A stretch of 64,000 nucleotides of DNA from Amoebophrya sp. A120 (Eukaryota; Protista; Dinoflagellata), in contig CAJINV010000005.1 of NCBI GenBank assembly GCA_905178155.1, positions 4,567,556 to 4,631,555 on the forward strand, read 5' to 3'. The notes beneath the pieces were generated by a model. That model ran no database searches. It saw nothing but the letters and a program-made list of their open reading frames with translations, and was not told where the DNA came from. The position numbers and the translations under genes were made by a program. Shown here one piece after another: positions 3,583 through 63,286 of the stretch. Position 1 is the first letter of the stretch, and each line of letters starts with the position of its first letter.

Positions 3583-6500
3583 TCACGCCAGCGCCTCCCC
3601 CACGGTTCGACTCACGACGACCTGCCTCACCTCCAGACTATGAAAAAAGTAGTGGAGGAGCCTGTCGGGGAGAAATCTGGGGTGAAGATTAAAGTAAAAC
3701 TCAGTGAAGTCGTGGAATTTCGATTTATTTGCATCACTTGTTCTCGGGTAGTCTTTATTGTCCTTTGCGCTTCCAAAGTCGTGCTCTTCTTGCTGGAGTT
3801 GTTCATCAGCCTCTTCCTCCAATATCTGGTGGTCGAAAATCCGAAAAAAACCACTATTCCTGTTGATTTGCTCCCTACTCGTCCGGTGCTGTTTCCTCCT
3901 CTTGATTTTCATTTTGCACGACGATGTTCTTGCCGCACTGGCGGTCCTCTGGTGTTCTTGCCTGCCCGTCTGATCCTGGTCCTCGCGGGATGATGCAGCG
4001 TTTTTCGGTGCTGGAACTGCTGGTGCATCTGCTTCTACTTGCGTTTTATTTCCGATAAAAATTCCACCGAATTGCTCCCGTTCTAATTTCTTCTCCGCAG
4101 CAAGAAACGCATCCAACATCCGGATCTCTTTATTGTCATCTCTTACTCTTTCATCCACATGATCTCTAGCTTGCGGCTTCGCACCATTTATTTCAGCTAT
4201 TTGCTCCACTTCTACTGCATCCGATGGATGATATGTTGCCCTGCCGCTGTCAGCACGGGTCTTGCTCATGATCGTAGCCACCCGTCTTTCCAAAAATTTT
4301 CGCAACGTCATGTAATAGAGTCTCCGGATATGCAACGTAAATTTCCCGTTGATGTAAAAAATGCATGATAAACTTCACCAATTTGGAGTGTAACACTTGT
4401 CATGCTAAACTAGGACTGATGCTCAGTTTTGTCATGCAGAAGCCACATTTGAATTTGTACGTCGTGTACAGGAAATTTATTGTGGATATCGAAGTTCGTG
4501 AAATTCTGGGAACGTCAACCCCTTTATGCATTGCAAAAGTATCGTACTCGTATAAATGCATTACAAATTTCCCCAGCATGAGAAATAAAATTTGTAATGC
4601 GGATTTACCTTAAGAACAAGATTTGTAATGCAAGTCTTGCATATATACGAATACGATACTTTTGCACAGGATACCCTTCAGCAGCAGTTGAAACACCTGA
4701 AAGCCCGCGCCGGTTATGGCGTTCTCAAACGTTACACTCTCAGCTGTTACATGAATTTTTAATGCAAGACTAGCACAGGTGAGAGGGAGACCTCCCTTGC
4801 GCGTCTTGCATGACAGGTTTGGTGCGGATTACAGTGCTATTTAGCCCTCCGGGAATTTGTCATGCGAAGCAGCTTGATAGTCTGGCGGGTCATGGTCATT
4901 TTGCATGACAAATCATGTAACAGTTGAGAATGTAACGTTTGAGAGCCCCATACCGGTGGTAGATTCCTTGTGTTCTTCTGGAAATGTGGCCGCGGCACTT
5001 CTTCTGGGCAGGTGCAGATCGGTTGTCGCATGAAGAAGATGACCTTCGTGAAGATGTTCGTCACCGTCCGCAAGAAATCGCACCGCGTTTTTCAACACAT
5101 GCGGGTAGTCAATGTGCAAAATGACTTATGAGAGTGCACAAGGACTCCCCCGTCCCTTCATTTGTGACGCAAAAACCCAAATCCAAGTGCTTCCCTGTGG
5201 CACTGCTTGCACGACAGATTCCGGACGAAGCCAAAACAGTACTACACGAGGCGCATGAATTTGTCATGCACAGGGTCCACGTCTGGTGGTGTTTGTATTG
5301 GTGTTCATGCAAAAGTACAAATGAGGGGGAGGCGGTGTGCACTCTCATATGACCTGTCGCACGGTGGAAGTCGGGCCAAACAAGTACTCTTTCGCGCCGT
5401 ACAAAATCCGGTGCTCCAGCTTCCCCACAACGTGGATTTTCAGGATGGTGTGCTTGTTGTGTTTGTCGTCACTGTAGTCTTCTTGTTGTTCTTCACGGCG
5501 CTTGATGTTCAGTGTGGGAGTTCTTCGTGTACTTGTTCCTGTGCTAGGCTTGCCTGGTGCTGGTGTCCTTTTGTTACTTGTGCGGGGTCCGCTACCACCA
5601 CTACGTGGTGGTCCCAACAACAACTGGTCCAGAGTCTTGACGTACCAAGAAGGCGCAGCGTCTCGTCGCTCTTGTCCTGTAGTATCTGATGAACCATGAC
5701 CACCTGGCCCATAGTCCTCACCCGCCGTGGCGTAGTTTGTATTCTTGTCCATCATGCCTAAATGCAATCCGCTGACCCCATCGGTAATCGCCGCCAGCCG
5801 CACCCCGCTATCATGCTGCAAAAGTATCGTACTCGTAGTAGAAATCGCGATTATGCATAAATGCAAATCGACGTCGCAACCGCAAGGCAAATCAGCATGA
5901 CACATTCCATTGATTTGGAATTTGTCATTCTGAGAAAGTTAAGTTTGTAAATTCGCAATTTCTACTAGCAGTCCCAGCACGAAGATATGATCTTGCAAGT
6001 CGTACCCGACTTTGTCCGCGAACTTGTCGTTCAGAAAGATGCTTTTTCTGATCCCGTCGACGATCTTTTGGTCGATGTCAAAACCGAAGGAAGTAGCGGT
6101 GACTTTATTTTTGGTCAAAGACAATTTCGTTTTTTTATCTTTTTATGAACTGCAAAAGTATCGTACTCGTATAAATGCATTACAAGTTTCCTCACCATGA
6201 GAAAAAAAATTTGCAATGCGGATTTGACTCAACAAAAAGATTTGTAATGCATGATTGCAATACGAATACGATGCTTTTGCACAGGATACTTTTCGACGCA
6301 CAGCAATCTTTTCCAAACTGTCCACAAAGGCCACGGCCCAAAGCATGCAATCTCCGTAGTGCGGCCCCACTTCGATCAACTCTAACTGCTTTATTTGATG
6401 CGGGAGGTGGTCGACTTCGTCCACGAGGCCTTTTCCTTTTCGTTCGTGCTGCTGAAGTTGTCTTCCATTCTCTTGTTCAGATTCCAGAGATGGTAGTCCA

Positions 6501-9500
6501 TCCAGCGGCGATGTTGAGTACTCACCTGCAGTTCGAGTCGACGAAGTGATCTTCACCTCGTCGTCCCTCGCCGCCATCCCACTTGTTTTCAGCCGCAAGT
6601 ACATTTGCAAGACCGCATCTTGGCATTCCCGCGGGCAATACGGTGTGTTTTTGGCACGGAGCGCGGAGGCGACGACGCCGTGGAAGGTGAGGTAGTATCA
6701 AATGCAAAAATGTCTGGGTCTGGAAGAATCCAACTTGTCATGCTGATTTTGGATTCTAAAAAAATCTGTATTGCATGAGCAGCAAAGAGAGTCCAAGTTT
6801 TGCTGTACGGAAAGAGCATTTGTCATGCGGTATAGCCATCAGGAAGCCCTCGCAAAATCTGTGATGCTAGGGCATGCATCACAGAGATCAGGAGTCATGA
6901 AAAATGTGCATGACAAACCTGGCAATCTTCCAGACCCAGACATTTTTACATCTGATAGGTAACGGGGGAAGACGACTTGAAAGTAGGTATGTTTCTTGTG
7001 GTATCAAATGCAAAAATGTCTGGGTCTGGAAATTTGTGATGCTGGGTGGCGTATCACGATGAGGCCACAAGTGCTGGCCCAGCATGACAAGTTTCGGAGC
7101 CGCTAGGTGTTGCCTATTCTGCATGACAAACTGCGTTTCTGCATGACAGAAAAATGGGGCTCTTGGGCAACGTGCATGACAGATTCAAGAGCCATGCCAG
7201 ACAAGCATGACAGACATGCATTCTTCCAGACCCAGACATTTTTACATTTGATATGTGGGCTGCGGCAGTGTTCATCTTGGACGGTAGTTGTATCTTATCG
7301 CCGTGATGTTCTTCTTCTTCATCCACCCCAACTACCTGATTGTGATTGTCATCTACTTTCCCTTCTAGTTCTGTTGTGGCCAGAAAAATCCTTCTCCACC
7401 ACGTTTCCAACCTCTGGCTCCAATGCTGCCGGCCCTCGAACTTCCGGTTTTTTTGCAAGACCTCGTTCTTGATTGGTTTGGGAATGGTGTATTTGAAACT
7501 GTTTTTGCTGTGCATCATCTCCTCTTCCTGGTGTTTCATCATCCCGGATGTTGCTGCAGTTGCGCTTTTCGCTTCACCTGTTTCTACTGCGTCCTCAGGA
7601 GTTTTTATGGCAGTTGTCGCAGCAGTCGTCAAGCTGCTCCTGTTACCCGAATGCGAATCTACTTCGCCATCTTCACCACTGTCACATATTGATGATGAAA
7701 GAGTGTCAGCATGATCTTCTTCCGGAGTAGACGCGTCTTCGGTTGTTTCCGTGCCACTAGCTTGATGTTCAATCACAGCAGAAGATCCGGTCGTGTCGCT
7801 GGCCAACAACGCCTGCGCCCGGTGAAAATCCGGACTCAGCTGAGGCACTGCCTGGATTTCCACCACTTGGTGTAATTGGAACTGCGCCAGGATTTCCCAA
7901 AAGAACCACTTGTCGACCAGCAAATGCGGGCTTTCCTGGAATTTTTGCTGAATAAAAGTGAGCACGTCCTGCACGTCCGGCAGCCACAAATGCCGCAGGT
8001 TTCGCATTGCAAGGGAAAATCCCCCCACCTCCCCATAGTGAACGCATTTTGTCCTTCCGAAAATTTGTGATGCAGATTTGTGGCCACAAATCCTGTCTGT
8101 CTTGCCAGAAGGCAAACCCAGGGAGTCCGCCACGATATGCAGGCAGCTTGTAATGCTGCAAGGCCAACAAGAAAGACACCTGCCACGCTAAGCCCCTAAT
8201 CAACCAAAAGCCCCCCCTCAGGCTTGCGATCTGGGCGCAGTGCTTTCCTGCAAGACAAATGTGATTTGTGTACACAAATCCCGCATCACAGGTTTCCGTT
8301 TCGATATGGGGAGGGAGGATTTTTCATTTTGATATTTCGCGCCGCAAACACAACCTCGTTTGCCTGCTTCACCCGTAAACTGAGATTCGCCAAGTGGCTC
8401 AATGCGTACGGAAGACAGAGGTCGAAATCTTTCTTCGTCAGAAATATGGGGCGCTCAAACGTTACATTCTCAAATGTTACATGATTTGTCATGCAAAAAC
8501 GCTATCACTTTTCACAATTTCAAACCTTCTCCGCATGACAAGTTCTCGACACGCTAGATAGCATTGTAATCTGCTCCAAACCTGTAATGCAAAAGGAGCA
8601 ACCTCGTCCTCGTCCCTTTCACTTTTGCCATTCCTGCATTACAAATCTCATGTAACAGTTGAGAATGTAACGTTTGAGAGCCCCATAAGAAACTCGCCGA
8701 AGCCCTGGCCTTCCGACGTGATCCGGGAGAGCGTGAGGTCCAGCTCCCTGAAGCGGTAGCGATGGTTGCAGTAACTGGCTGGACCTGGTGGACGAGGAGC
8801 GCCTGTAGTTGCCGGGAGAACTTCATTATGAAGAAGTAGTGAATTTGCGGGCAGGTGAAGGTCTTCGTACATCCAGCTCTGAATGTCGTGCTGATAGAAG
8901 TCTTTGGCGACGGCTATTGCTCTACTACTTGCCGCAGAAGAATCATTTGTTCCATTGTCATTGCCAAGCTGGTTGTTCGCCATCTCCTCGTCATCGTGGG
9001 CCAGCTCTTTCGTTTGAAGATTTTTAGATGATGGGCCGGCATTTCCGCCGCGGCGGCCATTATTTTCGATTTCGCCGTGCGTAGAAGTGCTGCTATCGAC
9101 ATTGTGTCCGTAGCGACCCACGCTAATATCTTCAGAAGTTTTTATTCCATGACCCTGCCGGAGCCCACGGTCGTGGTCTGCTTGTTCTCCACCCGCAACA
9201 TCCTGCTCAAATTCCCGCACAATGCCGTCGTGCAACTCCGTCCAGGTTGGCCAGAAATCCACCTTCTCACTGACACTCCGATCGTTTGCTGTTCCCTGCT
9301 GGTCGCGGTTGCCTTGCCCAGCAAGCGACGACGACGGCGCACCAGAAGAAGTCGTCGCGCCCATCTTATTTGTGAAGTGAAGATCTGACGAGGTGCTGCT
9401 GTCACTGTCGCTGTCCAAAGAATTCTCGCTGCTACCACCGTCCTCGTCTCCGGGAGTAGTTTTTGCATGGTGGTGAAATCTATCAAATGCAAATATGTTG

Positions 9501-10990
9501 TGTGGGTCTGGAAGGATGCAAACTTGTGACGCAGCGGCCTTTCGATCCTACAAAAATCTGTATTGCATGAGCAGCCAGCCAATCCAGTTCTTGCCCCGCG
9601 CAGAGGGCATTTGTCATGCGGTATAGGCATCAGGAAGCCCTCACAAAATCTGTGATGGAGGGGCATGCATTACAGACATCCTGGGTCAAGGTCATGCAGA
9701 ATGTGCATGAGCAACCGTGCATCGTTCCAGACCCAGACATATTTGCAATGCATAAAATCCGTACGTGTTCCAGGTCAGATGCGTCAGCGGGTACTGAAAA
9801 GCGACGCCGGCCTTCCTGTCGAGGCTCTTCGCCGGCTCTTCTTGCAGCGAACTGACGGCCAAGGCCGTCTTCAAATTTGTGTGCAGCATCACTGTATCCT
9901 GTGCAAAAGTATCCCATTCGTATAAATGCAAGTCTTGCATATACAATTTTTTTTCTTATAAAGTAAATCAGCATGACACATTTTATTTCTCTTTCTCATG
10001 CTGAGAAGATAATTTCAATTTGTCATGCGATATATACGAGTACGATACATTTGCAGTTCGTACACTGTCGCGGTCGACGCGTATCGTGCCATAATGGCGG
10101 ATAACAACCCGAACACCGGCCAGGAAGGTGAGTCCTGTCGGTGGTCGTGCAACCGGTGAGGGGAGTCTGAGTCATAATGTGTAGCCGTGTCTTGTTCTAC
10201 AGCGACGTCCTCTTCACCTGGACCCGCAAGCCGTCCTATCGCGAGCTGTGCCCAAGTTGTGGAGGGGGCAGCAATTCCAGCGCTGGACGACGAGTCCCCA
10301 ATCCTCGTCGCCTTGTTCATCTTCAGGAGCCCATGATGTCGTCCATAGTCCATCACGTGTCGCACCACCTCGATGAACACATTCGCATTGTGGCTCAGGG
10401 CAGACCTCGTAGTTCCATGGTCTACAACTTCTGCGTGGACTTCCTGCTTCCGCCGCCGACGAAAAAAATCGGCCGAGAACAGAAGTGAAAGTGAATCTTC
10501 ATGCGCTTCCTGGTACTGTTCATCACGAAGAGCAAGTATATTCTCATCCTCGTTCCCGCGTTCAGTTATTTCCTCAAAAAACGTCCGTGTTTGGTTCACC
10601 ACCATACGAAGTTCCTGTCTCGGGAGGAACAGAAAGCTGGACAAGAGCAACGAAATCTCACCCAGGAAGCAGGAGCTGGTGCTGTCGTGCAGCTGGGACG
10701 TAGTCTGCAAATGGTGTGCAGAGGTCGGCGAGAAATAACTGGTGGCCTTGCCTCCAGATGTGGTTCTCGTTGTGCCAGCACCGTGGTCGGAGATCTTCTC
10801 GTTTAGGCCACTGGAGGTAGTTTTGTTCGGACCGGTATTTTTAAACTTCTGCCCTTGTTCAGGTAAAGCTCCGTCTTGGCCGCCGGCGGCTCTCGCGTCG
10901 CCTCGCGCCCGTAGCAGCTCCTTCGGTTTTCTGTCTAGCAGGCGGCGGCTCTGCCTGGCTGTTTTGTTACATCGCCATGGTAAAAAAAAG
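3583..10990 (-). CDS. Multi-exon gene of unknown function with 12 introner introns; may extend upstream through GT-AG introns
   Basis: ORF blocks 10015-10710, 8648-9418, 7114-8133, 5345-5905, 3583-4335 alternate with elements; tested junction VRQV|ILHIDYPH across 5127-5349 is in frame. Confidence 0.65.
4329..4488. mobile_element. Introner family E (degenerate)
   Basis: TATGCAACGTAAATTTCCC...GGAAATTTATTGTGGATA; reverse-complement relative of 29175-29325; TSD decayed. Confidence 0.7.
4525..4673. mobile_element. Introner family B
   Basis: TATGCATTGCAAAAGTATCG...CGATACTTTTGCACAGGATA; TSD CCCTT. Confidence 0.9.
4715..4952. mobile_element. Introner family C
   Basis: TATGGCGTTCTCAAACGTTACA...TGTAACGTTTGAGAGCCCCATA; TSD CCGGT. 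Confidence 0.9.
5127..5349. mobile_element. Introner family D
   Basis: TATGAGAGTGCACA...TGTGCACTCTCATA; TSD TGACT/TGACC. Confidence 0.9.
5809..6004. mobile_element. Introner family B (degenerate)
   Basis: Left TIR TATCATGCTGCAAAAGTATCG; TSD CCCGC/CCCGA. Confidence 0.7.
6144..6288. mobile_element. Introner family B
   Basis: TATGAACTGCAAAAG...CTTTTGCACAGGATA; TSD CTTTT. Confidence 0.9.
6696..6957. mobile_element. Introner family A (262 bp)
   Basis: TATCAAATGCAAAAATGTCTGGGTCTGGAA...TTCCAGACCCAGACATTTTTACATCTGATA; TSD GGTAG/GGTAA. Confidence 0.92.
7002..7253. mobile_element. Introner family A (252 bp)
   Basis: Same ~30-bp TIR; TSD TGTGG. Confidence 0.92.
8005..8334. mobile_element. Introner, single-copy family F
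   Basis: Imperfect IR GAAAATCCCCCCACCTCCCCATA / TATGGGGAGGGAGGATTTTTC; TSD TTTCG. Confidence 0.7.
8445..8687. mobile_element. Introner family C
   Basis: TATGGGGCGCTCAAACGTTACA TIR; TSD AGAAA. Confidence 0.9.
9481..9754. mobile_element. Introner family A
   Basis: A-type TIR; TSD AAATC. Confidence 0.88.
9895..10062. mobile_element. Introner family B (reverse orientation)
   Basis: TATCCTGTGCAAAAG...TTTGCAGTTCGTA; TSD CACTG. Confidence 0.88.
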
Positions 10991-11389
10991 CTGTGGGCTT
11001 TGTTTTAATTACGCAAGAAGTAGTCGGTCGTGTTTTCGTTTTCAAGGTACTATCCTTTTTTCAGTCTGCATCAAAAGAACTCACACATGTTGCATCAGAT
11101 CAAAACTTGTTCTTTTTTTATTTCTTTCTTGGAAGGCCAACAGAATTGAAATTTCTTACCCTATCCGCACCTCCTGCCACAGCTTTCCCAGGGTAACCAG
11201 CTCCCGTTATCCAAGTGAAAAATCTACCCCGTCACCCTAACTATAATTTCGAAGGAGTTGAGTTGATGCGACATTCACTACCTGTGCGTACTTCATGTTC
11301 ATACACAAAAAAAAATAGGTACTACGTTGTGGTAGTATTACGTCCAGCAGGGTTTCCTCGGCAAGACAAGAGAAAACAAGGTCTGAAAA

Positions 11390-12540: not shown

Positions 12541-14255
12541 CAAACGCCCCGCTCCACCACACGCAGCATGAAACAACTTACTAAATAATCGAAGCGAACC
12601 TCACGCATAAGCATCTTCAGATCTTGAAGGCTTATATAAAACTCGATAAAGCTTATTATTGTTTTGATACATCAGAGTAGACCAAGGTTCTGCAGCCAGC
12701 ATGTGATTTCAAATATTGATAATCCTATTTTCACGAATGGGAACAACAAAAAGATGTCAACAATATCAATCTGAATCTCAACGGTTGTCAAAAGCCTGAC
12801 AACGTCTGCTGGTGCGCAACATGATTGATTCCGGTGAAACAAACATCTGCATATTTTTCGGCTCCGTTCCGTCTTCGTCAATTCATGAAGCTAGTAATAC
12901 ACTTCTACTTCATACCGATACACACATTTCGTTTTTATGAACATGAAGTTTTAGTTACGCGTGGATCCTAAATTCCATATACGGTCAATTGTATGTTGTA
13001 GGCTACTTGAAAAAATGTGAGTGCATGTTCTGTCAAACTTGATCTGAAAGTGAAAGTTAAAGCCAATGCGGTTACGTGATGTAGAAAATACTGCAGCAAA
13101 CAAAGTTTCGATTGTGTGCTTCGCAAAAGCAAAACCAAAATTTGATTTTGAATGAAGAAATGTCCGACCTGAAGAAAATATGAAAAAGTATAACTACCAG
13201 AAGAAATTTCGATATAGAATTCGTGTTGCTGTTCTACTCAAAGTTAAGTACTTCTACATTTGTTCGTAAGTAGAAACGCTGGTCGCACGTAATTTGTTCT
13301 TGTGGGGAAAAAGAATAAGAGAAATTATATTATTCGTCTGTAAGGAGAAGGATTTAATAATGTGCATGCGGCTGACAGATTGGATTCGGTTTCTCCGGGA
13401 AAAATTATGCTAGTGGCGCACGATGGCTCCGCAAGAACCGCTTGTTTTTCACTACTCAGGCTCGTGTGCGTACATTTGCGCGCAGTGGGATGTCACAGAG
13501 ACGCTGCAACACCAATCGTAGAAGACAAACTTGAACTTCGTGAAGATTAATCTAGAAGCAGAAGAACTCTGTGGGAACGATTTTTCACAAAAGGATTTCG
13601 GGTGCCGTGGTGTAGCTCGTCACGACGAGGACCTCTACGGGACAAGCGACTTCAACTCATCGCTGCTACCACCGTTTTCACGCGGTGCGGGGACCATTGC
13701 TTCAGCTTCCGTGCGTCCGTTCAAGGGAGCAGCCCCAGCAACCCCCGCACCGTCACTGTTGTCGGGTTGTCCCGTAGCGGAGCTGGCTCCATCGAACCAC
13801 TCCCGGCGCTTCCGTTTCAGAAAGTGACTCGCGTCGTGCCATGTGTCCGCGAGTGTTTTCTTCAAGATATCAGGTGGAAAAGCTCGAAGATCTCTCCATG
13901 ACAAATCAGTGCCGAGAATGCAACAAGTCAGAAATTCACAATCTTCTAGAGAACGCGACTTCTGCGGGTCATGCTGATATCGTCCGTAACTGTAACATCT
14001 TCACTTGAGGCGGCGCGCCGGCCTGATATAGCCACTGGAAGCTTGAGGCTCTGCGTTTGAGTCCCCTTTTATGCGTATTAAGTCATGCATGTCGGAAATG
14101 TTTTTGCAGGGGAAAAATCTATTTTCTCCTTCAGGTACGTTGGTAGCAGTATTTGAGTGCGATGAAAGGAAAAGTTGTTGACAAACATGCAAAAACTCTA
14201 TTCTCGTGTTCCTTCATGTAGTCCTCCCACAGCCACAGACTCGCACACTAATAAA

Positions 14256-35806: not shown

Positions 35807-35807
35807 G

Positions 35808-35991
35808 TATCGGATGGAAAAACTGTAGTTTCAATCTCAACAAATCTAAGTTGCAGACTTCTCTGCAATACAAACTCATACTCGCTCAGCATGGCATACA
35901 AAATCTGTCATGCTTCGAAAAGCAAGAGGAAGAGAAAACACGCACCATTTTTTGCCTGCTGTAGTGATCACTCATCAACGAGCTGGTCGTA
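35808..35991. mobile_element. Degenerate introner at a putative start codon
   Basis: TAT...GTA ends, internal TGTCATGC; TSD GCATG/GCATT containing the minus-strand ATG. Confidence 0.55.
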
Positions 35992-36181
35992 GCATTCCAA
36001 GAAGTTGAGACTGAGACAGCTTCTTCCCGCGATAGCCCAAGGGGAAACACGTGGAGGAGGTGAGTGTTCGTGGAAGTTGTGCCTGCTGCGGAGGAAAAAA
36101 TCCGGAAAATGCGCGGCGAGGTAATGAGCCTTGATGTTTTATTTTTTTCACGATGAATTTCTATTTTTCACGCTTAATGCT

Positions 36182-37574
36182 TCAGATAGCTCCCCAGATG
36201 AACATGAAACAAATGCTGATGAGAGTTGGTTCTTGCAAAAATTCTCCCAACACGATCAACATCTCATGCTCATGCACTACCGCGAGAAAAAACAAGCCAA
36301 AGTATCCAGGAAAAAAGCTGTGTAAGTGTAACTTTGTAGGAAGAGCAGCATCACAAATTCGTTTTGCATTACAGGGAAAACCTGTCATGCGCAGCAAGTA
36401 AGTGAAAACACGTATGATGGTAGTCTATGACGCACTTCCAGCATGACAAGTGTGACTGTTTTGCATTTTCTGCATCACAGATTTACACTAACTATACACA
36501 GTTTTTTTCTGGAGATACGAAGCCAGACAAATTCAATACGAACTTGAGGCTCCGCTCGAGGCTGCCAAGAGATTGGTGGACGACGGTGTCTCCCGGGCGT
36601 GCGAAAGAATCTGTCATGCTGCAGCTCTTCCATAATCTTGCAGTAGGACTACCAGCAGCGGTGGCGTCATCTCCGTCCAAAACCACTGCGTCCCTGTTGG
36701 CGGCAAAGAAATCTTCGGTGAGATATCGGACTGCACCGTAGTCCATGGCGGGAGCGTAATCGACGTTTTTATCTGGTGCACGGCAAGGCTGGATCAAGAA
36801 CGCCGTCTTGCTGAAAAAAGCAGGCTCTTGTAGAGCTCCATCACAACCTGTCGCGGCTGTCGTCCGCGCTGCGAGCGCCCGGGGGAGTTCTTCTTTCAAA
36901 AACTTGATGAAGTTCCAAAAGTTGATTTCCTCGTTTTCCGCTACACCGCTACTTTCCGTATCGGTAGCACAACTTTGGTTGCGTAGTTGCGATCTTCCAG
37001 TGGCCCCGCCCGCGTCCGACTCGGTGTTAGGACCACCTTCGCCTCTTTTCTGTAATTCCGCAAAAAGATTCCTGCTCTCGTCTCCTGTCGTACTAGCTCC
37101 CACGGATTGCAGATCGTGGATGTGATTCAGGATGGGCAACACTCGAATGTCACCTTCGATCTTGGGTTCAGGTTCTACGTCTTCTTCACCTCCAACTACG
37201 TAGTCCTCTTTCTGTCCTATCGGCAGAAAGTGTTGAAAAGCGATGTTCTGCGCGTACCGTCGCCATTTCGCGTCCGTGGATTCTGTCCAGGGCGAAATCA
37301 CCACGACGCGGACTTTCTCCTGCGATGATTTCTTGTAGTGCTTTTCCTCGATAGAAGCGATCACTCTGTCACGCCAGGAGGTCAGACTGGTATTCTTGGT
37401 ATGCTGCGACGTGCTGGGCCGTCCCGCCTCGGTGGGGGTGGTAGTAGTTCTGCCGATTTGATGCTGTCGTTCAGGATCTGCATGCGAAAACTGCACGGGC
37501 CCCTCCACCCAGAAGAGCAGGTCGCGACGGGCAGAAGAGGGCCGAGAAAATGAGGGTAGTTTTACTAGCGACAT
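36182..37574 (-). CDS. Two-exon gene of unknown function with hydrophobic C-terminus
   Basis: ORF 36492-37574 joins in frame (SGF|GLFFLAVV) to 36182-36297 after removing 36303-36517 plus 5 nt. Confidence 0.65.
36303..36517. mobile_element. Introner family I
   Basis: TATCCAGGAAAAAAGCTGTGTA...TACACAGTTTTTTTCTGGAGATA; TSD CAAAG/CGAAG. Confidence 0.82.
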
Positions 37575-50100: not shown

Positions 50101-53100
50101 AAATTCAATTTCGATTCAAAAATCAGCTTTTGCATTTTGAAAGAGGCCAGTATAGCCTCAAAAAGGTGATGCAAAAACGACGCCCATTCCAGCACTGCGA
50201 CGCGGCGGCACAGGTTGCCTCTTTTTGGGATGTGTTTTGGTGATCTAAAATAGGCTCCAATGTGAACTAGCTAGATAAGGAGTAGGGTACTTAGGAAGGC
50301 GGCTGGAGACCGCTACGATGGTGGCGCTTTGCCATCGCAGAACCACGGCTGGAAGCGGCATTTCGCGACCCCTTCTGGCTGACGTAATGCTGCCCTCAAA
50401 AAGGTGACGCAGAAACGACGCCCGTTCCAGCACTGCGACGCAGCGATACAGGTTGCCTCTTTTTGGAATGTGTTTCCTTCGGTGCTCTAAAATAGACTCC
50501 AATGTGAACCAGCTAGATAAGGAGTGAGGTAGGAAATTAGCGTAATGCTGCCGGGGCCCCGTCCGGGGCTCCGGCAGCATTACGCCAGCCAGAAGGGGTG
50601 GCCCAATGCCGCTTCCAGCCGTGGCCCTACGATGGGATGAAAGCGCCACCATCATAGCGGTCTAAAGCCACCTTCCTACCATACTCCTTATCTAGCTAGT
50701 TCACATTGGAGCCTATCTTGGTTCACATTCATTGGATCCACGACGGTATTCTCAATCTTCCACGGTACCATGCGGATTAGCAATCTGCGACCCCCCCCGA
50801 GAGGGGTCTCCAGAAGGGGCCCCCTGATTTGCTTTCGCCGATGCTATGCTGTAGAAAAGAGGGGGGGGTTTTTTTGGCGTCTTCCTGGAGAGGTTTCGGC
50901 CACCTCTTGAATCGTTAATCTGAGTTTCTCAATAGAGCTCCATGCGACTGCATGCTATGATGGACTTTCCATCACAAAAAAAGGCGACTTTACTTCAGAG
51001 CTCCGTCAACACGCCACCAAGATGTCAGGGCCCCGCCCGGGGCCCCGGCAGCATTGATGCCATTACGTCAGCCATAAGGCACCAAATGCGGGCAGTTTAA
51101 CGGCGGCAGCAGTGGGCAGGCCTGGCTCTCTTCCGCGGAGCCTTCAGGAGCCTCATTGAAGCATCGCCTGAACTAGTTCAGATTGGCGCCTGAGCTAGTT
51201 CTCCACTTCCGACATCACATCTTATCAGATTCCCCGGATCTTCATCTGCGACGGCGAAGCAACATTGAAAAAAGAATGCGAATCGAAATGAAAAGCAGGC
51301 TTACGTCAGCCACAAGGCACCAAATGCGGGCAGTACAACGGCGGTAGCAGTGAGCAGGATGGCAGTCTTCCGCGGAGCCTCTTAAGGAGTCTCATTAAAG
51401 CACTACCTTAGCTAGTTCACATTGGGGCCCTAACTGGTTCATCACTTTCAACATCAAATCTTACCAGGCGGCCCGGACCTTCAGCTGCGGCGACGAAACA
51501 ACATTGAAAAAAGAACGCAAATCTGAATGAAAAGCAGGCCATTTGAAAATTGCAAAGCTGATTTTTGAATCGTTTTTGAATTAATCAAGTAATTTGTCTC
51601 ATAATCGTCTTTTTCCTGTTCATAAATCGGTGACAGCAACCGGTGACAACTGGACGCTCTTTCGATGGAGGAAAGTTTTGACAACGGATCTAATGGGGAC
51701 GCGTTCGGCCGCAGGGACGAGTTTTGGTTAGGATTACCGTGATTTTTATCTGTGCCCACCTTGGCGCCGGGAGTGACCAACATGTTCTGGCCGAGGAGAT
51801 GCGATTGGTTCCTGTTTAGGAACAACTCCTGGGAGGATTTTGAGATGATGTTCGTACCGGCCGCCCCTGCCCCTTCATTCGACGGGGGAGCTGCAGGATC
51901 AACAACACTCGGTAGTAGTTGTTGACCACATGCTGATTGTACTCGCTCATCTTCAGTAGTTCTCCCGCCACGCGGCACCGGTCGTTGACCTCGACTCGTC
52001 CCTTCCGAGACATCATAGTGCCGCCGCCCTGGTTCTTGGATGTACTCCTGCAGCTGGTCTTCTTCTTGTTGTTCTTCAGCCTCGGCGCCTAAACGCTCCT
52101 CTTCCTGAAAATTGTTACCCTCTCGTCGACGCTGCAGCACAGCTGAATTGTCAACCTCTCGCTCCTCTGGACTATCTGCCCAATACTGCCTTTCCTGTTC
52201 TTCAGTCGCTAAGGCTCGCAACCGTTCTTCCTCTAGGTCTATGCATTGGAAAACAAGTATCGCACAGCACGACGCACTAGCGGCACCATGGCGGACATGG
52301 ACAAATTTTTGCAGAAGGAAAAATTTGCAAATTTCGCATGCAGTTTTGTGCAAGCAAGAAAATCTGTCATGCAAATGTCCATCCACTTCGCACGAGTACG
52401 GTACCTTCGTATATTATGCGTAAGATCGCGCATTTGCTCCTCCTCTTCTTCCCTGTCCCGCCTCTGCAACTCTTCCCGCTCGCCGGAATATCAAGTACAA
52501 ATATGTCTGGCTCTGGGTCTGCAAATTTGTGATGCTAAAATGTGCATGATGAAAACACTTCCTCATGCAGGACAGCATAGCAAGTCTGCACAACGCTTTA
52601 TCATACGAACTCCGCATGAGAAACTGCGTTTTTGTAGGACGTGAGAGGCTCCTGCCACTTTTGTTGGTCATGCAGCACAGATTTCACAGGAATGCAAGAC
52701 CAGCATGACAAGTTCCAACTGTCCAGACCCACACATGATATTTGCATTTGATACGGAACACACGCTTACCACTTCCTCTTGCAACATGTCATTCGCCATA
52801 ATATCATCTCCCAACAACTGCTCGACGTCCACGCGCTCGTCCGCCCTGTGTCTCCTCTCATCTTCTAGCTCCTGCAAAGCCAGCTGTTCTTGTGCCTCCT
52901 CTTCCCGTTGTTGCTGGTGCGCCACCTTCTCTAAAAGCAATTCTTCCCAAGATGAGTAAATTTGATTAAGTGAGTATTTTTTTTCTGAAACGAAAAATCA
53001 ACGGCCCCAATGGATGGCGCAGAAAGTTGGGCGTCGCAGTTCCTGTTGCGGCGACGGAGCGTCTCCCGATTTGCCAACGGCGTTACCCGACGCGCTGCAG

Positions 53101-56100
53101 AGTCAGCTCGACACCCGATGTGGTGACGCAGGTCCGTGTAGCAAAATCCATCACGAGACTTTGATCGCGCCTCAATAGCCTGGCCAAGAAGGCGGAACAG
53201 GACTGCTGCCTCGTCGTCCACCTGCATCCCTCGCCCGAGTTCTATTCCGAGCTAGTCCATATGAAAATACTCAGCCAATAGTTCCTTGATGCGAGTTGAG
53301 TACTACCATGCAGATTGGTAGCAAGACGTTTGGTAAGAGGAATACAGTCATTCTATGTAGCTAGTTCAAATGAATTTACGACGTCCTTCGATTTGCAGCC
53401 GACTCTCATCGTGCGAGCAGCGATATAATTTGCGAGGCCGTTTTGATTAGCGATTTGGCATGATTCCCTCTGCGAGGTCGAGTAGAGGCTCTAAGCACTT
53501 TAAGCTACACACGAAGACGACAATGCTAGCGAGCAAACCCCTCGGCAGAACCAACACTATGTCGATCATTAGCTACTTGAATAGAAACGACTTACCTGTT
53601 TGTGCCCTTCTCTTCCTGTTCCGAGAATCCGTCTGCCTTCCTGCCCTGGTTCCCGAATTCGTCAAGCGTTTTCGTTTTTTTTTTTCTCAATTAAATGAAT
53701 TTACTCATCTTGGGAATTGCACCACATAACCGTTGTTGCTGGTGCGCCACCTTCTCTAAAAGCAATTCTTCGCTGTGGAGCGCCCGATGAAATAAGGGCG
53801 TTGGATTTTTTCAGATTTTCACTTTTTCAAATTTTTAGAACAGGCGCCCTTCTCTTGCTATCAACATCGACCAGCAGAGGAGTACTTCTCCAGCCACCAA
53901 ACAAGCTAGTGGGCATAAGAGGAAGAAAAAACTGTAGCACCGGCGAGCGCTACACCCTGTCAGGCGTTGACTTTGGAACGCAGCCAACCGGCCAAACAGA
54001 CGCAACACAAATTTCGAAACAAAGCGCAACATTTACCACCTGACCCCCAGGCCCACCCTTCAACCTCGACTGAGCAGCTTCATCCACATTTGGCAGAATG
54101 CTCTGGCTCTAGGCAAAATGGAATGCCTGTGGAGAAGAGCTGGAACAATCTGGCCGGAAATGGAATAATTTTCATGCATCAGCTACCAATCGGGAGGAGC
54201 AAAGTTCCAGATTTTTCCAAGTTCTTCCAAAACCAATTCCACAACCTCCTCCAAAAGCGCCAAACTGACAGGCGCGGGGGTGTGGCGGGGGGTGTGGTGG
54301 GGGGTGTGGCGGGGGGTGTGGTCAGGTGTGTACCATTTTTCCACCTGTGTTTATGTCGTCGCTTTTGCGCACAGAGAGGCGCTAGTCGGAGATTTTTCTA
54401 TATGGGGCCCCGTATTAGGTCGGTTGATCTACTCCAATATCCTGAAGATGACACGGACCCACTGAGAAGTCTTGCACTAATCGCCAAGTGCTCCCACCGG
54501 CGAGTTCCCTCCGCCGGACATTTCGTTTTTCAAAAGTTCTTTTTTTGAAAAATAGCAAAAAAATCCAAGCAAGTTCCATCACCGGTATAAGTTCCATCCT
54601 CTTCCCGTTGTTGCTGGTTCGCCTTATGAATTGCAAAAGTATCGTACTCGTACTAATTGCAGCAACTATGCATGACATTGTCCTTAAAGTAAAACAGCAT
54701 GACAAAATCCAGCTCTCATGCTGAGGAAATTTGTATTGCAATTACTACGAGTGCGATACTCTTGCACAGGATACGCCTTCTCTAAAAGCAATTCCTTCGC
54801 GTGTTCGTCCAAAGAAGATTCTTCTTTTTCATTTCCCCCCTCGTCGCTTTCAACTTCATCATTATTCACCTCGTCGTCCTGCTGCTGCGGTGGATTTATT
54901 TCCACGACCTGCTCATGTTGTGCTGGTTCTTTCTCGTCCTGCCCGTTTTCGAGATGATGTCGTGGATCCTCGTTGACATGGAGATCAGCATCATCATCAT
55001 CATCCGGTGGTTGCTGCGGTCCTCGTCCTTGCTTGTACTGCTGCTCAGAGGAACCACGCCCATGAAAACTACACTCACCCCGAGCAGCAGCTGCTGCGCT
55101 GTTGACGCGTCCTAACTGCGGCTCGTGTCGTGGACCAGCATGATCTGGGCGCAGCTCCGCCTCTTTCTCCTCTTCATCTCCGCGAGTACTTCTACCCCCG
55201 GAAAGACAACTACCGGGTAGTAGTTCCTGTTTCACACGCTGCTGGGGCAACAGCACGACCCCTTGATCCTCGTCGACGTCGCCTTGTTGCGCTGGCACGG
55301 CGATCTCGTCCATACCACCACTCGCGGCTCCCACGCCTCCAGCAGAAGCTGCAGGCACTGCGGAAGAAAGGGAACAAAGAGCTCCTTCCGCTGGTCGTGA
55401 AGATGTGTCTAGAAATAAATCATCGTTGATCCTTGTAATGCGAAAGACCTTCTCCAGAATAAGCTTATCTGGCGGCAACCCGGAGGGCTGTGCTGGCTGT
55501 GCTCTCTCAGCGGCCTCCATCTCTCCCGCCCTTCGCGCCGCGTCGGTCTTCTGGAAATCGATTTTGAAGGACAGTTTTTCTCCGTCGGTCAGAATTTGCT
55601 TCTCCCCACGCATCAGCCTCTTTCGGGTCAGAGCAGTGGTGGGAGTTGTTTTATTCATACTGGTCCGCTGCTCACCTCCTGCCGTACGATTTTTCCCGGC
55701 TTGTTCACTCACTAAGACATACGCGGGGTTGCGGCCAAGGTTGTGCAATTCCAGGTGGTAGTCATTTTTGTCCTGTCGTTCACCTCGCACGAGCTTCAGG
55801 ACGGATTGGACGCCACTCAAATATGCGCAGTTGGAAACACTGTAGTCGCAAGTTGCGTCGCGACCGAAGGTTAGTTCGGGCAGCTTCTCGTCTACAGGAG
55901 CAGACGCCTGGTTGTGGTCATTCTTATTTTCTTTTTTGTCGTCGACCGACGTCACAAACAGCTCCTTTTTCCAATTCAGAATCGCCTCCGGGCTCGCTTG
56001 CTTGATCTTAGCGATGTTGCACGGTTTCTCAGGCTCCAAAGTGATCACGAACCCGACTTTTCTAGTGCCTGGTTTGTGTCTATTAGTGAGGAGGACCTCG

Positions 56101-56417
56101 TGGTCCGCAGGAGGGTTTTGAAGATGTGAGGAAGAAAAAGAACTCTTCTGGTGCTGTGCAGCGCCTCCGGTTCTTGTTGATGACACACCTGCGGGGGGAT
56201 GCTGCTGGTGTTGCTGCTTCTGGTAAACCCTGTTCGCATGATTCATGTTGTTTACGACCCTTTTCTTGTTTGCTCCCGAAGTAGATGATCCGCCCGCACA
56301 ACTACTACTGCTTCCGCCGGCGCCCTGTCTTGAAGACTTTGGTCCGTTCCCTCCTGCTCTCGGTACAGCGGAGGACCGCATGTGGTCATGATCCAACGAA
56401 CCGCCAAAACCAAACAT
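38116..56417 (-). CDS. Very large low-complexity protein with N-terminal FHA domain (continuity across 50100-54590 uncertain)
   Basis: FHA-like ELTFGRDATCD..LSGVQ..LGRNPAYV..LTDGEKLSF in 54684-56417; in-frame joins checked from 50100 down to the stop at 38116, including across the 5.7-kb intron. Confidence 0.6.
39270..41780. repeat. 122-bp GC-rich tandem satellite, ~20 copies, homogeneous core and diverged edges
   Basis: Identical 65-aa spurious ORFs recur every 122 bp. Confidence 0.97.
43012..43230. other. Assembly gap (N run) flanked by a ~320-bp near-identical overlap
   Basis: 42694-43011 is repeated at 43231-43548. Confidence 0.95.
44017..44280. mobile_element. Introner family A
   Basis: A-type TIR; TSD TCCGA. 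Confidence 0.9.
45607..45760. mobile_element. Introner family B
   Basis: B-type TIR; TSD TAGCA; in-frame join ELL|IPRL. Confidence 0.9.
48343..48604. mobile_element. Introner family A (262 bp)
   Basis: A-type TIR; TSD AAAAT; in-frame join LDF|IGT. Confidence 0.92.
48684..48856. mobile_element. Introner family B
   Basis: B-type TIR; TSD TGCTG. Confidence 0.88.
50101..51585. mobile_element. Foldback-like TIR element built from ~240-bp units
   Basis: Terminal IR CGATTCAAAAATCAGCTTT / AAAGCTGATTTTTGAATCG; direct repeats ~50155/50395 and ~51062/51301; ~140-bp inverted pair 50250-50395 vs 50573-50716. Confidence 0.65.
52240..52422. mobile_element. Introner family B (degenerate)
   Basis: Remnant TIRs; TSD AGGTC/AGATC. 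Confidence 0.7.
52489..52753. mobile_element. Introner family A (degenerate)
   Basis: A-like TIR; TSD CGGAA. Confidence 0.85.
52946..53714. mobile_element. MITE-like element with CCC...GGG termini
   Basis: 17-bp TIR CCCAAGATGAGTAAATT / AATTTACTCATCTTGGG. Confidence 0.7.
54625..54773. mobile_element. Introner family B
   Basis: B-type TIR; TSD CGCCT. Confidence 0.9.
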
Positions 56418-57108
56418 CTTTTCACACTGCTTTTAGTCGTTTCTTGCTGTAGTTGCCCCGGATTTCTTCTCAAAAATAAATGCGAGAGGACACCCGATCA
56501 AAGAGGACACTAAGGACTTTTTGTTTTTGCCCTAGATCAAGCAGCTGGAAGAACTCCTAAAAAACGCTGAGAAGATGAAGCTACGAAACATTTACTTGTT
56601 TTAAAAGTCATGCAACGAAGTCACGGAGCTAGTATTCCAATGAATGAGATGATGAATTTCTCAAGCTCGCCCTGTTGTCAAAAAATTTCTGCCGTGCTGG
56701 AAAGCTACTTCTTCGCGCACAGAGCAAAGCATGCGACCTTTTTGCCTTGTCGTTTTCTCTCGGAAAGATTTTTTTTTTTTGTGAATTAAGGTGCAGATGT
56801 AATAGTAGGTCGCGCAGGCACATCCCTACTACAGAGATGTAGATCTCTTTTTTTGGAACCGGAATCGAACAGAAAAAACACCAAAAGAGACGTCTCAAGA
56901 AGCGCCATGAGGTCCAACAAGACTGGAGAACTCCTGGGATAGCAGTGCGTGAAAAACGCACGAGCTACGGTGCTGCAGCAAAATTTTCATGTTGCTTGGA
57001 TATGGTGCCATGGTCGCTTGTACTAGGTGTTGATAGAAATTCAAGAATTTGGCGCTTTAGAGGTCAACAAGTAGAGCACGAGTGTTTTGATGTTCAAGAT
57101 CTTTACTT

Positions 57109-58985
57109 TCACAAACTATCCTCCTCCTCATCCGTCGTATCTGGGCTCGGCTGCGTCGGAAAGATCAGGCTTATCCTCCGTCCCGTGCTCCTTGGCTGCC
57201 CGACAGGATCGCCGGGGAGGTGCTGATCTTCCGGCGACATCGAATAATTTGTATCCTGTTTACTCACGGTCTCCGCATCATGATCGGTCTTACCTTGGCT
57301 AATTTTCGTCCCCACGACGACAGCTGTTCTCTCGCGCCCGCCGCTCCACAGGCTATCGTACTCATACACTTCCAAGATTTCTCGCATCACTTTCGTTAGA
57401 AGCAGCTCTTCCTCGCTGCCAGGCTGAATCTATCCAGTGCAAAAGTATCGCACTCGTACAAATGCAAGTCTTGCATTACAAATCAGAATCTTGTCTCCAA
57501 GCTACAAATTCTATTTGTCATGGTGCTGGGGAAAATTGCAATGCATTTGTACGAGTACGATTACTTTTGCAATGCATAGAACCGCTAGAAAAACCTTTTT
57601 CTCCTTCAGATCCCGCCTGGCGAGCTCCAAGCACGCCTTCGCAACCACTTCCGCGGAGTAGAGACACCGAAGATCGGTCCGGAGGGAGTCGTTCGCGTAG
57701 GCGATGGCTTTCGTGAGGAGGGCCTGGTTACGTGTGGAGGAAGCAGAAGATCCCGAAGATAATCCTACATTTCTTCGTGGGCTTCGATTGCGAAGATTTG
57801 TTCTTTCATCATTGGCGGCCCCTGCCCTGGGTGATGCTGCGGAAGCAGCTGCACCCACAGTTGTTGTGTTAAACAACTCGTAAAGGACGGATTGCGTGTG
57901 TGCGTGAGACAGACTTAGGACAGCTGAGGAATTCTTTCCTTCATCTTCTTGCATCGTCATTCCATCGGGAAGTCGTGCTGAACCTACTTCTCCTGCCGGC
58001 TTGTTTTCATCATCTTCTCCTTCCCCCACAAGTTGTACTACAGGTTCTCGATTGTAGGAGCAGAATTGGACCAAATCGAACCCTAAAACCCGCAAGACCC
58101 GTTTCTCCATCTGCACGAGTTTTTTCGCTTGCAACTGCAAATCGAATTTCTCCGCTTCGTCGGGTGATCCGGCGTTCAACTGGGAAGAAAGTAAAGCGGT
58201 AGAAAACTTTATCCTATGTAAAAACGTCCCCACCCCATTGTCAAGAAGGAGAATCGGCTAGACAAGTCCGCAAGTTTTGGCTGTTTCGCATGACAAATTT
58301 GGACTCGTAGTGTAGTGCTGATGTTTGAGGTAGTTCAGCAGCATCGCAGATCTAGGTTATCATGCTGATTTCAGCATTACAAATTCCAAAACACGACTAG
58401 AAAATGCTTCTCATGGAGGGCTCCGCATGACAAACACTTTGACTTTCAGCATGCAGGTTTGCATTACAACTACGGGGTGGGGACGTTTTTGAATACGATA
58501 AACTTCCCCATCAGGAGCTTCAACGAAATCCGGCACTCCTCCGTTTTACACGCGAGAGACAAGGCTGCGATTGCCGTGTACCGGACGTCATGGTCTTGGA
58601 ACTCGCAGTAGTATATCCTTCGCAAGAGCATCGCACACGTATTGCAGTCACGCATTACAAATTGTTTTCTTAAGGTAAACCCGCATTACAAATTTTCTTT
58701 CTCATGCTGAGGAAATTTGTAATGCATTTATACGAGAACGAGTGCGATACTTTTGCAATGCATATAGCAGTAGAAGACCTGAAAAATGTGGCACGCCGTC
58801 ACCATCACGCGTTGGGGGAAGGATGCTGGGGTTTGCTGGCAGCATTTCTGAATCAGGAAAGCGCCGTAGGAACGGTGCGCCTTGGCGGTCGTCGTCTGGA
58901 GAGCAGCTTTTGGGAGGTCTTTGCTGTTGTCGTGGGGTGGACCACTCGGGTCTTTTAGCACAACTTGGGGTGTAGTGGTGGTCAT
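57109..58985 (-). CDS. Cyclin L-like (transcriptional cyclin), four exons
   Basis: Cyclin box: VMVTACHIFQVFY, AIAALSLACKTEE, MEKRVLRVLGFDL, AIAYANDSLRTDL..AEVVAKACLELARR. Confidence 0.82.
57431..57578. mobile_element. Introner family B
   Basis: B-type TIR; TSD GAATC/GAACC. Confidence 0.88.
58210..58500. mobile_element. Introner family H
   Basis: TATCCTATGTAAAAACGTCCCCACCCC...GGGGTGGGGACGTTTTTGAATACGATA; TSD AACTT. Confidence 0.88.
58614..58764. mobile_element. Introner family B
   Basis: B-type TIR; TSD TAGTA/TAGCA. Confidence 0.88.
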
Positions 58986-60451: not shown

Positions 60452-61417
60452 TTACTCGTCGGACCGGGACTTGCGCTCTAACAGGGCCTTGCGATCCTTG
60501 TCGAGCTTGTATGAGATTGCACAACTCCCCCTCCCCCTCATTTGTATGGTACGAGCAGCAATACAGACACCAGCTCAAATGGAGCCTGCGCACGACAAAT
60601 ATACACACGAATTGTAGTGCTGTTCGTGGTTCCAAAATTTGTCATGCTCGCTGTTCTTGCAGACAAGATGTGGATTTGGGCTTTCGCATCACAAATGAGG
60701 GGGAGGGAGAATTGTGCACTCTCATAGCTTGATCTTGGTGATCATCACCTTGGATGGCTGCACCGGGACGTTGGTGGACTGTCCGTTAACCTTGTCACGG
60801 GGACTATGCATGGTAAAAATCTTTTGCTTGTGACATCGGCTTGTTGTTGTGCTGTCGAGGACAATTCGATACTAGTCTGTATCGCATACCCATATACTCT
60901 CGGCATACAAAGCAACGGCCTTCTTCTCGTGCCAAGACTTTATTTCATCCCTCTTTGGACCTAAAACTCACGCTTTGAAATGTGGTTCTGTTAAAAAAAT
61001 CTTCAAAAAAAGCCATTCTTGGCATGAGAGATGACCACCACACCGACGCTGAAGGTGAAACGTATGCAAAAATCCACCTTGACTCTCGAATTATGACAAA
61101 AAGTTATCCTCGACATCAACAGCATGACAAAGAAGAACAAAAGCAGAAGATTTTCCTTTTTCGTAAGACACCCGCTCGACGTGGATCATCCACTTCTTGC
61201 GGAAGACGCCGGTCACCTTGCCCTCACGCTTCTCGGCGCGGCCACGCTTGATGATCACCTCGTCATCCTTGCGGATAGGGAGGGAGCGGACCTTGTACTT
61301 CTGCTGCAGCTCCTTGGACAGCGGAGCGGACATCATCACACGGCGCTTGTGGGACGGGGCGTTGAAGTGGGCCTTGCGGCACTTGCGGCGGGAAGAAGTC
61401 ACGTTGGAGAATTTCAT
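60452..61417 (-). CDS. RPL26: 60S ribosomal protein L26 (uL24), three exons
   Basis: [23 protein letters not shown]...[13 protein letters not shown]...IHVERVS|[23 protein letters not shown]|[18 protein letters not shown]. Confidence 0.96.
60510..60726. mobile_element. Introner family D in RPL26
   Basis: TATGAGATTGCACAA...TTGTGCACTCTCATA; TSD GCTTG. Confidence 0.93.
60805..61165. mobile_element. Degenerate introner in RPL26
   Basis: AAAATCTTTTGCTT / AAGCAGAAGATTTT IR; TSD decayed; element+5 removal restores ERVS|RDK. Confidence 0.8.
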
Positions 61418-63012: not shown

Positions 63013-63286
63013 TATCAAATGTAAAAGTGTCTGGGTCTGGAGAAATGCAACTTGTCATGCTAAATCTGAAACTGAAGCATGCAAAAATCTGTGCTGCGTG
63101 ATTCCCACAAGTTGTCCAGTTTCGACCAAGTCGGGGGGGAGTTTCTCATTCTCACGAAGGATAGGTATGAGAGAGATCGCACAGAATCTGTCGCGCTAGG
63201 TCCTGCATTCCAGACCTCATGGGTCACGGAAAAGCTGCATGACAAGTCGCGCACTCTTCCAGACCCAGACATTTTTGCATGTGATA
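63013..63286. mobile_element. Introner family A
   Basis: A-type TIR; TSD CGGTG. Confidence 0.9.

Follow-up and report, generated by a model that had tools for sequence, protein, structure and literature searches.

Introner elements of Amoebophrya sp. A120 and a cut register for their removal as element plus five nucleotides

Described introns bounded by inverted repeats

Introner elements, together with a high content of non-canonical introns (>60% of all introns), have been described in the marine parasite Amoebophrya sp. A120 by Farhat et al. (2021; PMC7789003), who state the manner of their removal as an open question. These elements have a mean length of about 240 nucleotides (nt), fall into many families and carry inverted repeats starting with TAT, followed by seven looser bases and then at least three A (PMC7789003, section 11), together with direct repeats of 3–5 nt, given as 5 base pairs (bp) in the legend of Fig. 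S19. Other Amoebophrya genomes are reported as canonical (PMC12005148). The elements considered here lie in a window of 64,000 nt of the A120 genome (contig CAJINV010000005.1, positions 4,567,556 to 4,631,555 of the forward strand; the window is the whole stretch that was analysed) and are published introner elements, as the organism, the TAT + 7 + AAA repeats, the direct repeats, the removal at non-GT-AG borders and the division into families all indicate. An earlier note on this DNA, which had recognised transposon-derived non-canonical introns, therefore overstated their novelty as a discovery, since the same genome and element class are treated in PMC7789003; its guess that the DNA is of Amoebophrya was correct. 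The two accounts nevertheless differ: the published splice sites are called "variable" relative to the hairpin, with an "unknown" border, whereas a uniform 5 bp and one register of 1 + 4 nt are found here, and the published account argues against general mobilisation by a transposase. Fig. S23 of that paper, on repeat position versus splice site, may show part of the register.

Gozashti et al. (2025; PMC12130899) likewise treat introners as DNA elements with terminal inverted repeats (TIRs) and give a target-site duplication (TSD) of 5 bp for several families; family 38 is entered in their Dataset S2 as "Ginger, 5-bp TSD, TA/TA termini" with integrase-related homology. Their 58 rows for A120 comprise automated TSDs of 2–11 bp and four splice-site mechanisms, with no single rule in the portion available. 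Ginger elements, including TDD-4 and TDD-5, resemble the present elements as cut-and-paste TIR elements (PMC2836005); however, Ginger termini are TGTNR whereas the elements here start with TAT, and Ginger duplications are mostly 4 bp, so that 5 bp fits only the TDD-4/TDD-5 members.

The nonconventional introns of Euglena are alike in having short motifs, predicted to pair in most of the introns folded here, at fixed spacers inside both ends, free terminal bases, a 3′ spacer longer than the 5′ spacer and a suspected origin from miniature inverted-repeat transposable elements (MITEs), and their machinery is suggested to be non-spliceosomal (PMC12501133). Their code, N3-CDG…CH'G-N5-6 before an exon that starts with R, differs from N1-TAT…ATA-N4 here, their purine preference at the 3′ exon start is not seen here, and the lineage is unrelated; the present elements thus work like Euglena introns but are not members of that class. 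In Fritillaria borealis, MITE-derived introns with inverted repeats and a duplication also have non-GT/AG ends and are removed by an adapted U2 spliceosome (bioRxiv 2025.08.15.670264, on the introns of Henriet et al. 2019), which sets a precedent for a spliceosome of this kind, although these ends are mostly the fixed pairs AG-AC and AG-AT, whereas the +1 base and the last four bases are free in the present elements.

Removal as element plus five nucleotides and its register

The public runs X1, X3 and X5 were compared over positions 13800–33750 and 4800–24790; X1 is DNA-like, and X5 was guessed to be RNA. Among the joints listed, 18 junctions were readable, namely 15 joints in 4800–24790 and three junctions in 13800–33750, one seen as a joint and two as consecutive pieces, and the X5 contigs skip the element plus 5 nt in 18/18. 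One X5 contig of 4717 nt skips 14 segments in a row, while X1 contigs run unbroken through the elements over 15642–19264 and 20345–23888 at a depth of about 44. Furthermore, X5 is devoid of whole stretches of unique sequence, as expected of RNA. The copies are therefore kept in the DNA and removed at the RNA level, as the earlier note had proposed.

Several features define the reach of this result. The ends of 4 of the 18 elements were assigned after the joint was seen. Junctions beyond the joints listed may break the rule, and minor alternative cuts, which contigs drop, may occur. In 13800–33750, 14 of the 15 listed joints were excluded: they connect the ends or inner parts of repeated elements in X1 and were taken as other copies; two of these (24687>30521 and 28692>28770) occur in X5 too. 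The unique exons of 4800–12800 are uncovered in X5, from which we draw nothing on expression, X3 has no depth on the unique exons of 13800–33750 except at the 29726 joint, and the raw RNA run X9 gave 12 mapped reads, nearly all partial. The junction of the 29732 element probably comes from a paralogous locus; the X5 contig over this element has loose ends at 29656 and 30011 and runs into unlike sequence on both sides. Around it, an exact 77-bp duplication (29496–29572 and 30122–30198) flanks two half elements and an exon-intron-exon piece, and the whole of 29496–30198 is likely to be either part of a gene picked up from a different locus or an assembly error.

Wherever the 5-bp copies are not identical, the bases that stay can be read from the junction. 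Register 1, in which the single nt before TAT and the four nt after ATA (read in transcript sense) are removed with the element, alone fits 18/18 junctions, against 10 for register 0, 15 for register 2, 13 for register 3, 10 for register 4 and 8 for register 5, and the intron is accordingly N·TAT…ATA·NNNN. The earlier wording, by which the element and one whole copy are excised, is correct in length, although the cut takes one nt from the upstream copy and four from the downstream copy. Three joins without a repeated base, at the 17197, 18187 and 22140 elements, fix the register exactly, and for one of them (17197–17497) both ends had been defined before the transcript data. A shared register arose among independent random registers in 96 of 200,000 trials, and in 602 of 200,000 when the 22140 and 29732 junctions, as post hoc or possibly paralogous, were set aside.

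The terminal bases are largely free. At register 1, the 5′ dinucleotides of the 60 elements are GT (19), AT (16), TT (14) and CT (11), and GT-AG occurs in 1/60. The observation that many elements offer no GT/GC-AG pair extends to nearly all, since only 4/58 have one at element + 5 in any register; 17 of the 18 transcript junctions have no GT/GC-AG register at all, and the single GT-AG junction lies at register 1. The fixed 1 + 4 register has good support from a single gene in a single run and agrees with two annotated genes. No statement of it was found in the literature searched, which excluded the figures of PMC7789003 and the majority of subscription papers; the element + 5 rule with this register is an addition to a known system.

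Reading frames agree with the rule. With element + 5 removed, long open reading frames (ORFs) on the minus strand run across 53 of 58 elements, as the earlier note had seen at junctions tested by hand, among which KIKL/DKDR and LGD/SL were checked. By this lenient measure, element + 2 bridges 51 of the 58 and element + 8 bridges 52, against 33–39 for other values; since these three lengths restore the frame nearly alike, the frame fixes the rule only modulo 3, and it is the 18/18 transcript junctions that fix the removal length at 5. The longest ORF at element + 5, a stop-free frame of 2391 amino acids (aa) across 21 elements (13638–27446, minus strand), carries motifs that we take to be GDSL-like and calpain-like (QGPLGHCYF).

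At a further 12 junctions, models built at element + 5 reproduce two annotated A120 proteins without a difference. The model with ten elements between 4329 and 8687 is identical to P0115 in 1050/1050 aa at element + 5 but not at + 2 or + 8, and the RPL26 model with two elements is identical to P0001 (125 aa) and colinear with an 83% identical relative. The first RPL26 exon and an exon of a second gene are 100% identical to proteins named Amoebophrya sp. A120, and both RPL26 and the 2391-aa ORF are intact only after the elements are removed. RPL26 (60452–61417, minus strand) carries one young and one old intron of this kind, and P0002 corresponds to a near-identical RPL26 that was called as an unspliced read-through.

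Elements, their duplication and their origin

A scan for inverted-repeat pairs, refined by reading and self-BLAST, gave 60 TAT…ATA elements between 4329 and 63286 (Table 1), the same range over which 55–58 had previously been counted. Sizes range from 145 to 935 bp, except for one of the 60, which measures 5715 bp. In transcript sense, the 5′ end is TAT in 55 and TAC in five, and the 3′ end is ATA in 58, ATG in one and ATC in one; the few ends described earlier as decayed to GTA on the forward strand correspond to the five TAC ends. The elements form eight multi-copy clusters and 16 singletons, in both orientations; "unrelated" is too strong a word for families that all share the terminal consensus TAT-S-N3-TG-N-AAA, with an AAA/TTT block conserved across them at element positions 11–13. 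The elements are short, non-coding and multi-copy, with inverted repeats and a duplication of fixed length, as MITEs are. A scan of the window against Rfam gave 0 matches. Besides the 60, a few decayed or half elements lie at 29580–29655, 30002–30112 and 35610–36034, the last of which holds overlapping weak TAT…ATA candidates with ambiguous ends.

The duplication was assessed in 31 window elements chosen without reference to it, the only criteria being TAT..ATA and an inverted repeat that matches at 16 or more of 20 positions. An exact 5-bp duplication is present in 21/31 and an exact duplication of 3, 4 or 6–10 bp in 0/31, and none of 20 blockwise dinucleotide shuffles yields such an element. 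Over all 60 elements, the copies match at five of five positions in 33, at four in 17, at three in five, at two in one, at one in three and at none in one; the position of mismatches inside the duplication gave no clear signal. A second assembly, JACKZZ01, to which all 158 loci from a motif scan of metagenome contigs belong, holds the same element families at high density, and its repeat-defined elements have an exact duplication of 5 bp in 207/267, of 4 bp in 2/267 and of 6–10 bp in 0/267. The flanking 5-bp duplication noted earlier is found in both sets. Insertion targets in JACKZZ01 show only a mild palindromic bias, and an empty orthologous site was not found, 0/158 of these loci being orthologous to the window.

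One duplication length and one end consensus make it plausible that a single transposase class lies behind all elements. The earlier proposal of one DNA-transposon group making a 5-bp staggered cut keeps that plausibility, although the transposase itself was not found: visual inspection of the long elements, in the window and in 523 kb of JACKZZ01, revealed no recognisable frame of this kind, and the long TAT…ATA elements (1104 bp at L020 and 2618 bp at L071 in JACKZZ01; 935 and 5715 bp in the window) are nested or filled with repeats.

Table 1. Elements of the window and the basis for their removal as introns (X5 joint, junction within an X5 contig; skip, nt omitted; registers, those that fit the junction).
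Position	Strand	Size (bp)	Removal	Remarks
4329..8687	-		identity to P0115	ten elements of one gene: 4329-4488, 4525-4673, 4715-4952, 5127-5349, 5809-6004, 6144-6288, 6696-6957, 7002-7253, 8005-8334, 8445-8687
9481..11317	-		predicted introns, from sequence	9481-9754, 9895-10062, 11051-11317; upstream of annotated start
13868..14330	-	463	intron 13864-14331 at the fixed register; X5 joint 13862>14331, skip 468; registers 0-2	right end assigned after the joint
14733..15667	-	935	X5 joint, skip 940	family 2, nested insert
17197..17497	-	301	intron 17193-17498; X5 joint, skip 306, no repeated base; register 1 only	duplication 1/5
17567..17711	-	145	X5 joint, skip 150	
18187..18494	-	308	intron 18183-18495; X5 joint, skip 313, no repeated base; register 1 only	old; weak inverted repeat; duplication 1/5; right end assigned after the joint
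19239..19383	-	145	X5 joint, skip 150	interrupts LGD/SL
19507..19668	-	162	X5 joint, skip 167; registers 0-3	
19781..20032	-	252	X5 joint, skip 257; registers 1-5	sole GT-AG intron of 60, at register 1
20086..20367	-	282	X5 joint, skip 287	
20502..20834	-	333	X5 joint, skip 338; registers 1-3	
20984..21312	-	329	X5 joint, skip 334; registers 0-4	
21756..22046	-	291	X5 joint, skip 296	TAC start in transcript sense; ends assigned after the joint
22140..22501	-	362	intron 22136-22502, starting N-TAT; X5 joint, skip 367, no repeated base	old; 3′ end ATC; duplication 0/5; ends assigned after the joint
22930..23247	-	318	X5 joint, skip 323; registers 1-2	
23463..24038	-		X5 joint, skip 581 = 576 + 5	tandem pair 23463-23823 and 23829-24038 with one shared 5-bp copy
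24102..25187	-		predicted introns of the 2391-aa ORF	24102-24401, 24456-24723, 24918-25187
25868..26127	-	260	consecutive X5 pieces 25862>26128, skip 265	
27126..27361	-	236	consecutive X5 pieces 27121>27363, skip 241; registers 1 and up	
28560..33573	-		predicted introns	28560-28811, 28982-29134, 29175-29325, 30297-30552, 30912-31061, 31101-31258, 31361-31622, 31671-31933, 32566-32827, 33322-33573
29732..29944		213	joint in X3 and X5, skip 218	not listed for X1
36303..36517	-	215	predicted intron	
38260..48856	-		predicted introns of an 1853-aa ORF	38260-43974, 44017-44280, 45607-45760, 48343-48604, 48684-48856
52240..58764	-		predicted introns	52240-52422, 52489-52753, 54625-54773, 57431-57578, 58210-58500, 58614-58764
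60510..61165	-		identity to P0001	RPL26 pair: 60510-60726 and an old one, 60805-61165
63013..63286				family-1 element, perfect duplication, outside long ORFs

Some entries are composite. The insert of about 790 bp in the 14733–15667 element is 78% identical to one in an element of a different family (L020 of JACKZZ01, 505–1608); it is a mobile sequence that nests in introners, and the composite is still spliced at element + 5. The tandem pair at 23463–24038 leaves the transcript as a single intron, or else as two introns with an exon of zero length between them. The largest entry, 38260–43974, is a family-2 element split by an insert of about 5.5 kb in which a 122-bp tandem array and a gap in the assembly occur; its removal at element + 5 restores the 1853-aa ORF and hence predicts a 5.7-kb intron. 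Among the introns predicted from sequence, 9481–9754 and 9895–10062 lie in a stop-free frame, and one X5 piece starts at 25188, next to the 24918–25187 element.

All element-spanning host ORFs (3586–63873) are on the minus strand, matching the unidirectional gene clusters described for the genus. On the opposite strand, a GC-rich, stop-free frame of 732 aa with a PIF1-like helicase domain (3–2198) resembles the terminal part of a Helitron-type element. Furthermore, the window contains short arrays of 14- and 15-bp units (2798–3303), four copies of a 311-bp tandem repeat (34282–35590) and, at 63851–63990, the start of another repeat that is 74–81% identical to sequence in eight loci of the second assembly.

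What may read the element ends

That a remodelled U2-type spliceosome reads the element ends instead of GT-AG is, in our judgement, an evenly balanced proposition. A cut-and-paste transposase, for which the integrase-related family noted in PMC12130899 is a candidate, would have bound the shared end TAT-S-N3-TG-N-AAA and, cutting with a stagger of 5 bp at targets for which it had little preference, inserted non-autonomous copies. The copies remain in the DNA, and in the pre-messenger RNA (pre-mRNA) their inverted repeats are predicted to pair, to join the ends and to replace the missing U1 and AG recognition. The cuts fall 1 nt before TAT and 4 nt after ATA with any flanking bases; because 1 + 4 adds up to the length of the duplication, the sequence before insertion is restored in the mRNA and any insertion is silent at once. 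The N-U-A start would set U at +2 and A at +3, like a spliceosomal GUA site. A120 keeps U2, U4, U5 and U6 and 83 of 89 spliceosomal proteins, with U1 undetected (PMC7789003).

The signal in favour of the remodelled spliceosome is the base at +2. In JACKZZ01, where ORF scoring oriented 199 elements and left 111/310 unoriented (the same scoring is right in 26/27 on the window), T stands at +2 in 199/199, as it does in 18/18 transcript junctions at register 1, whereas its mirror partner, A at -5, varies in 7/199 (P about 0.016); the same T/A pair at +4/-7 varies four versus four. A U at +2 that is more conserved than pairing requires hints at the catalytic core of the spliceosome, and it is suggestive of U+2 being read by its sequence, as happens at spliceosomal GU-A sites. 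All nine "predominant" motifs of A120 have T second, as have all nine of A25, which are TT-NN (PMC7789003, Table S4); A25 inverted repeats start with TTA-R-R, unlike A120 ends, and a fixed register of its own, sharing T+2 and A+3, may hold in A25. Annotated 5′ ends, which in retrospect point the same way, are NT in about 68–71% of cases in three large families (6681/9716 in family 2, 892/1322 in family 1 and 383/540 in family 18; PMC12130899, Dataset S2), although aligners slide inside perfect duplications. Two further candidate signals were rejected: selection for G at +1, the excess of which mirrors C at duplication position 1 and is thus a target preference, and a fixed branch point at the final A of the element, since this terminal A varies among the 199 elements.

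Several observations weigh against the spliceosomal reading. Of the features of U2-type introns, U at +2 is present but GT/GC…AG is not (1/60 in the window; 6/199 in JACKZZ01, where about 7 GT-AG are expected), AG stands at the 3′ end in 4/60 window elements, and neither G+1 nor AG exceeds chance; the spliceosome would have to have lost both terminal contacts. An invariant adenosine near the 3′ end that could act as a fixed branch point was not found among the 199 elements, A-5 varying in 7/199 and A-7 in 4/199. The asymmetry at +2 is one of three positions compared, with the strand there taken from ORF scoring. The transcript evidence consists of contigs, nearly all from one run, only guessed to be RNA, and from one gene, with all junctions on the minus strand, and the runs may underlie the public annotation, in which case transcripts and annotated proteins are not independent lines. 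The failure to recognise a transposase frame in the long elements also counts here, as does the report that Euglena introns, the closest in architecture, occur as circles and not lariats (review PMC11282704).

A less probable but serious alternative is a non-spliceosomal endonuclease and ligase that recognise the hairpin by its paired TAT/ATA base, with cuts 1 nt to the 5′ side and 4 nt to the 3′ side of it, and that leave canonical introns to the ordinary spliceosome, as proposed for the nonconventional introns of Euglena. Wholly free terminal dinucleotides, the absence of a fixed branch A and a layout that matches the genetically tested Euglena code (PMC12501133) are what such an enzyme would leave, and most verified introns are predicted to pair end to end, with at least 14 end-to-end pairs in 14/20 introns and 3–9 in the other six. 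However, the terminal TAT/ATA is predicted to be unpaired in the verified introns 18187, 19507, 21756 and 22140, and the stem is shifted in 13868. The earlier notion of structure-guided removal covers only part of the matter, since several verified old introns with little predicted pairing at their very ends, or with a stem displaced by an indel, are cut at the same distance from the TAT and ATA motifs. An endonuclease reading paired ends also leaves unexplained why U+2 is more conserved than its pairing partner and why the N-T-A register recurs in A25 despite different element ends, and such an enzyme has not been identified. It remains a tentative suggestion, somewhat doubtful in our view, that mRNA splicing in A120 has a second, non-spliceosomal machine, for which the transposon end N1-TAT…ATA-N4 is the signal and the terminal bases are of no account.

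It is improbable, though worth stating, that the hairpin is dispensable and that a recruited protein adaptor, derived for example from the end-binding domain of a transposase, reads the short end motifs and sets both cuts by a ruler, with catalysis by either machine. Old introns with weak end pairing do retain TAY and ATH at the exact cut distances, and the AAA/TTT block at positions 11–13 is kept across families; however, motifs of this length would not suffice to mark an intron without the fold, and transposase binding to the DNA accounts for the conservation at 11–13, which is symmetric.

Hairpins flanked by direct repeats are a classic substrate for template switching, and the contigs derive from complementary DNA; a reverse-transcription artefact, with switching across the hairpin between short direct repeats, is nevertheless very improbable, since the three joins without a repeated base share the register, a single contig lacks 14 successive segments, and RPL26 and the 2391-aa frame are whole only with the elements removed. 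Ciliate internal eliminated sequences have TA-type ends and a transposon origin, and with X5 only guessed to be RNA, a comparable DNA excision in a somatic or stage-specific genome might be imagined. This is the least credible reading, since X1 contigs pass through the elements without a break, the 29726 joint is not listed among the X1 joints counted, X5 misses unique stretches as RNA would, and the published introns are backed by RNA sequencing (PMC7789003).

The single register collapses the "variable" splice sites into one code, N-TAT…ATA-NNNN; the published sites look variable because aligners slide within the 5-bp duplication, and annotated intron ends should be corrected by the register in tens of thousands of cases. 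It accounts for silent insertion at any target, shows lariat and circle assays where to look, with RPL26 as a good target, and offers a scarless, sequence-independent design for introns. A duplication of 8 bp is of hAT type and would fit the Euglena spacer sum of 8–9. If the second splicing machine is real, A120 and Euglena together would point to a general design, in which spacers that sum to the duplication length of the transposon make every insertion scarless, and this design would have evolved independently in alveolates and euglenids.

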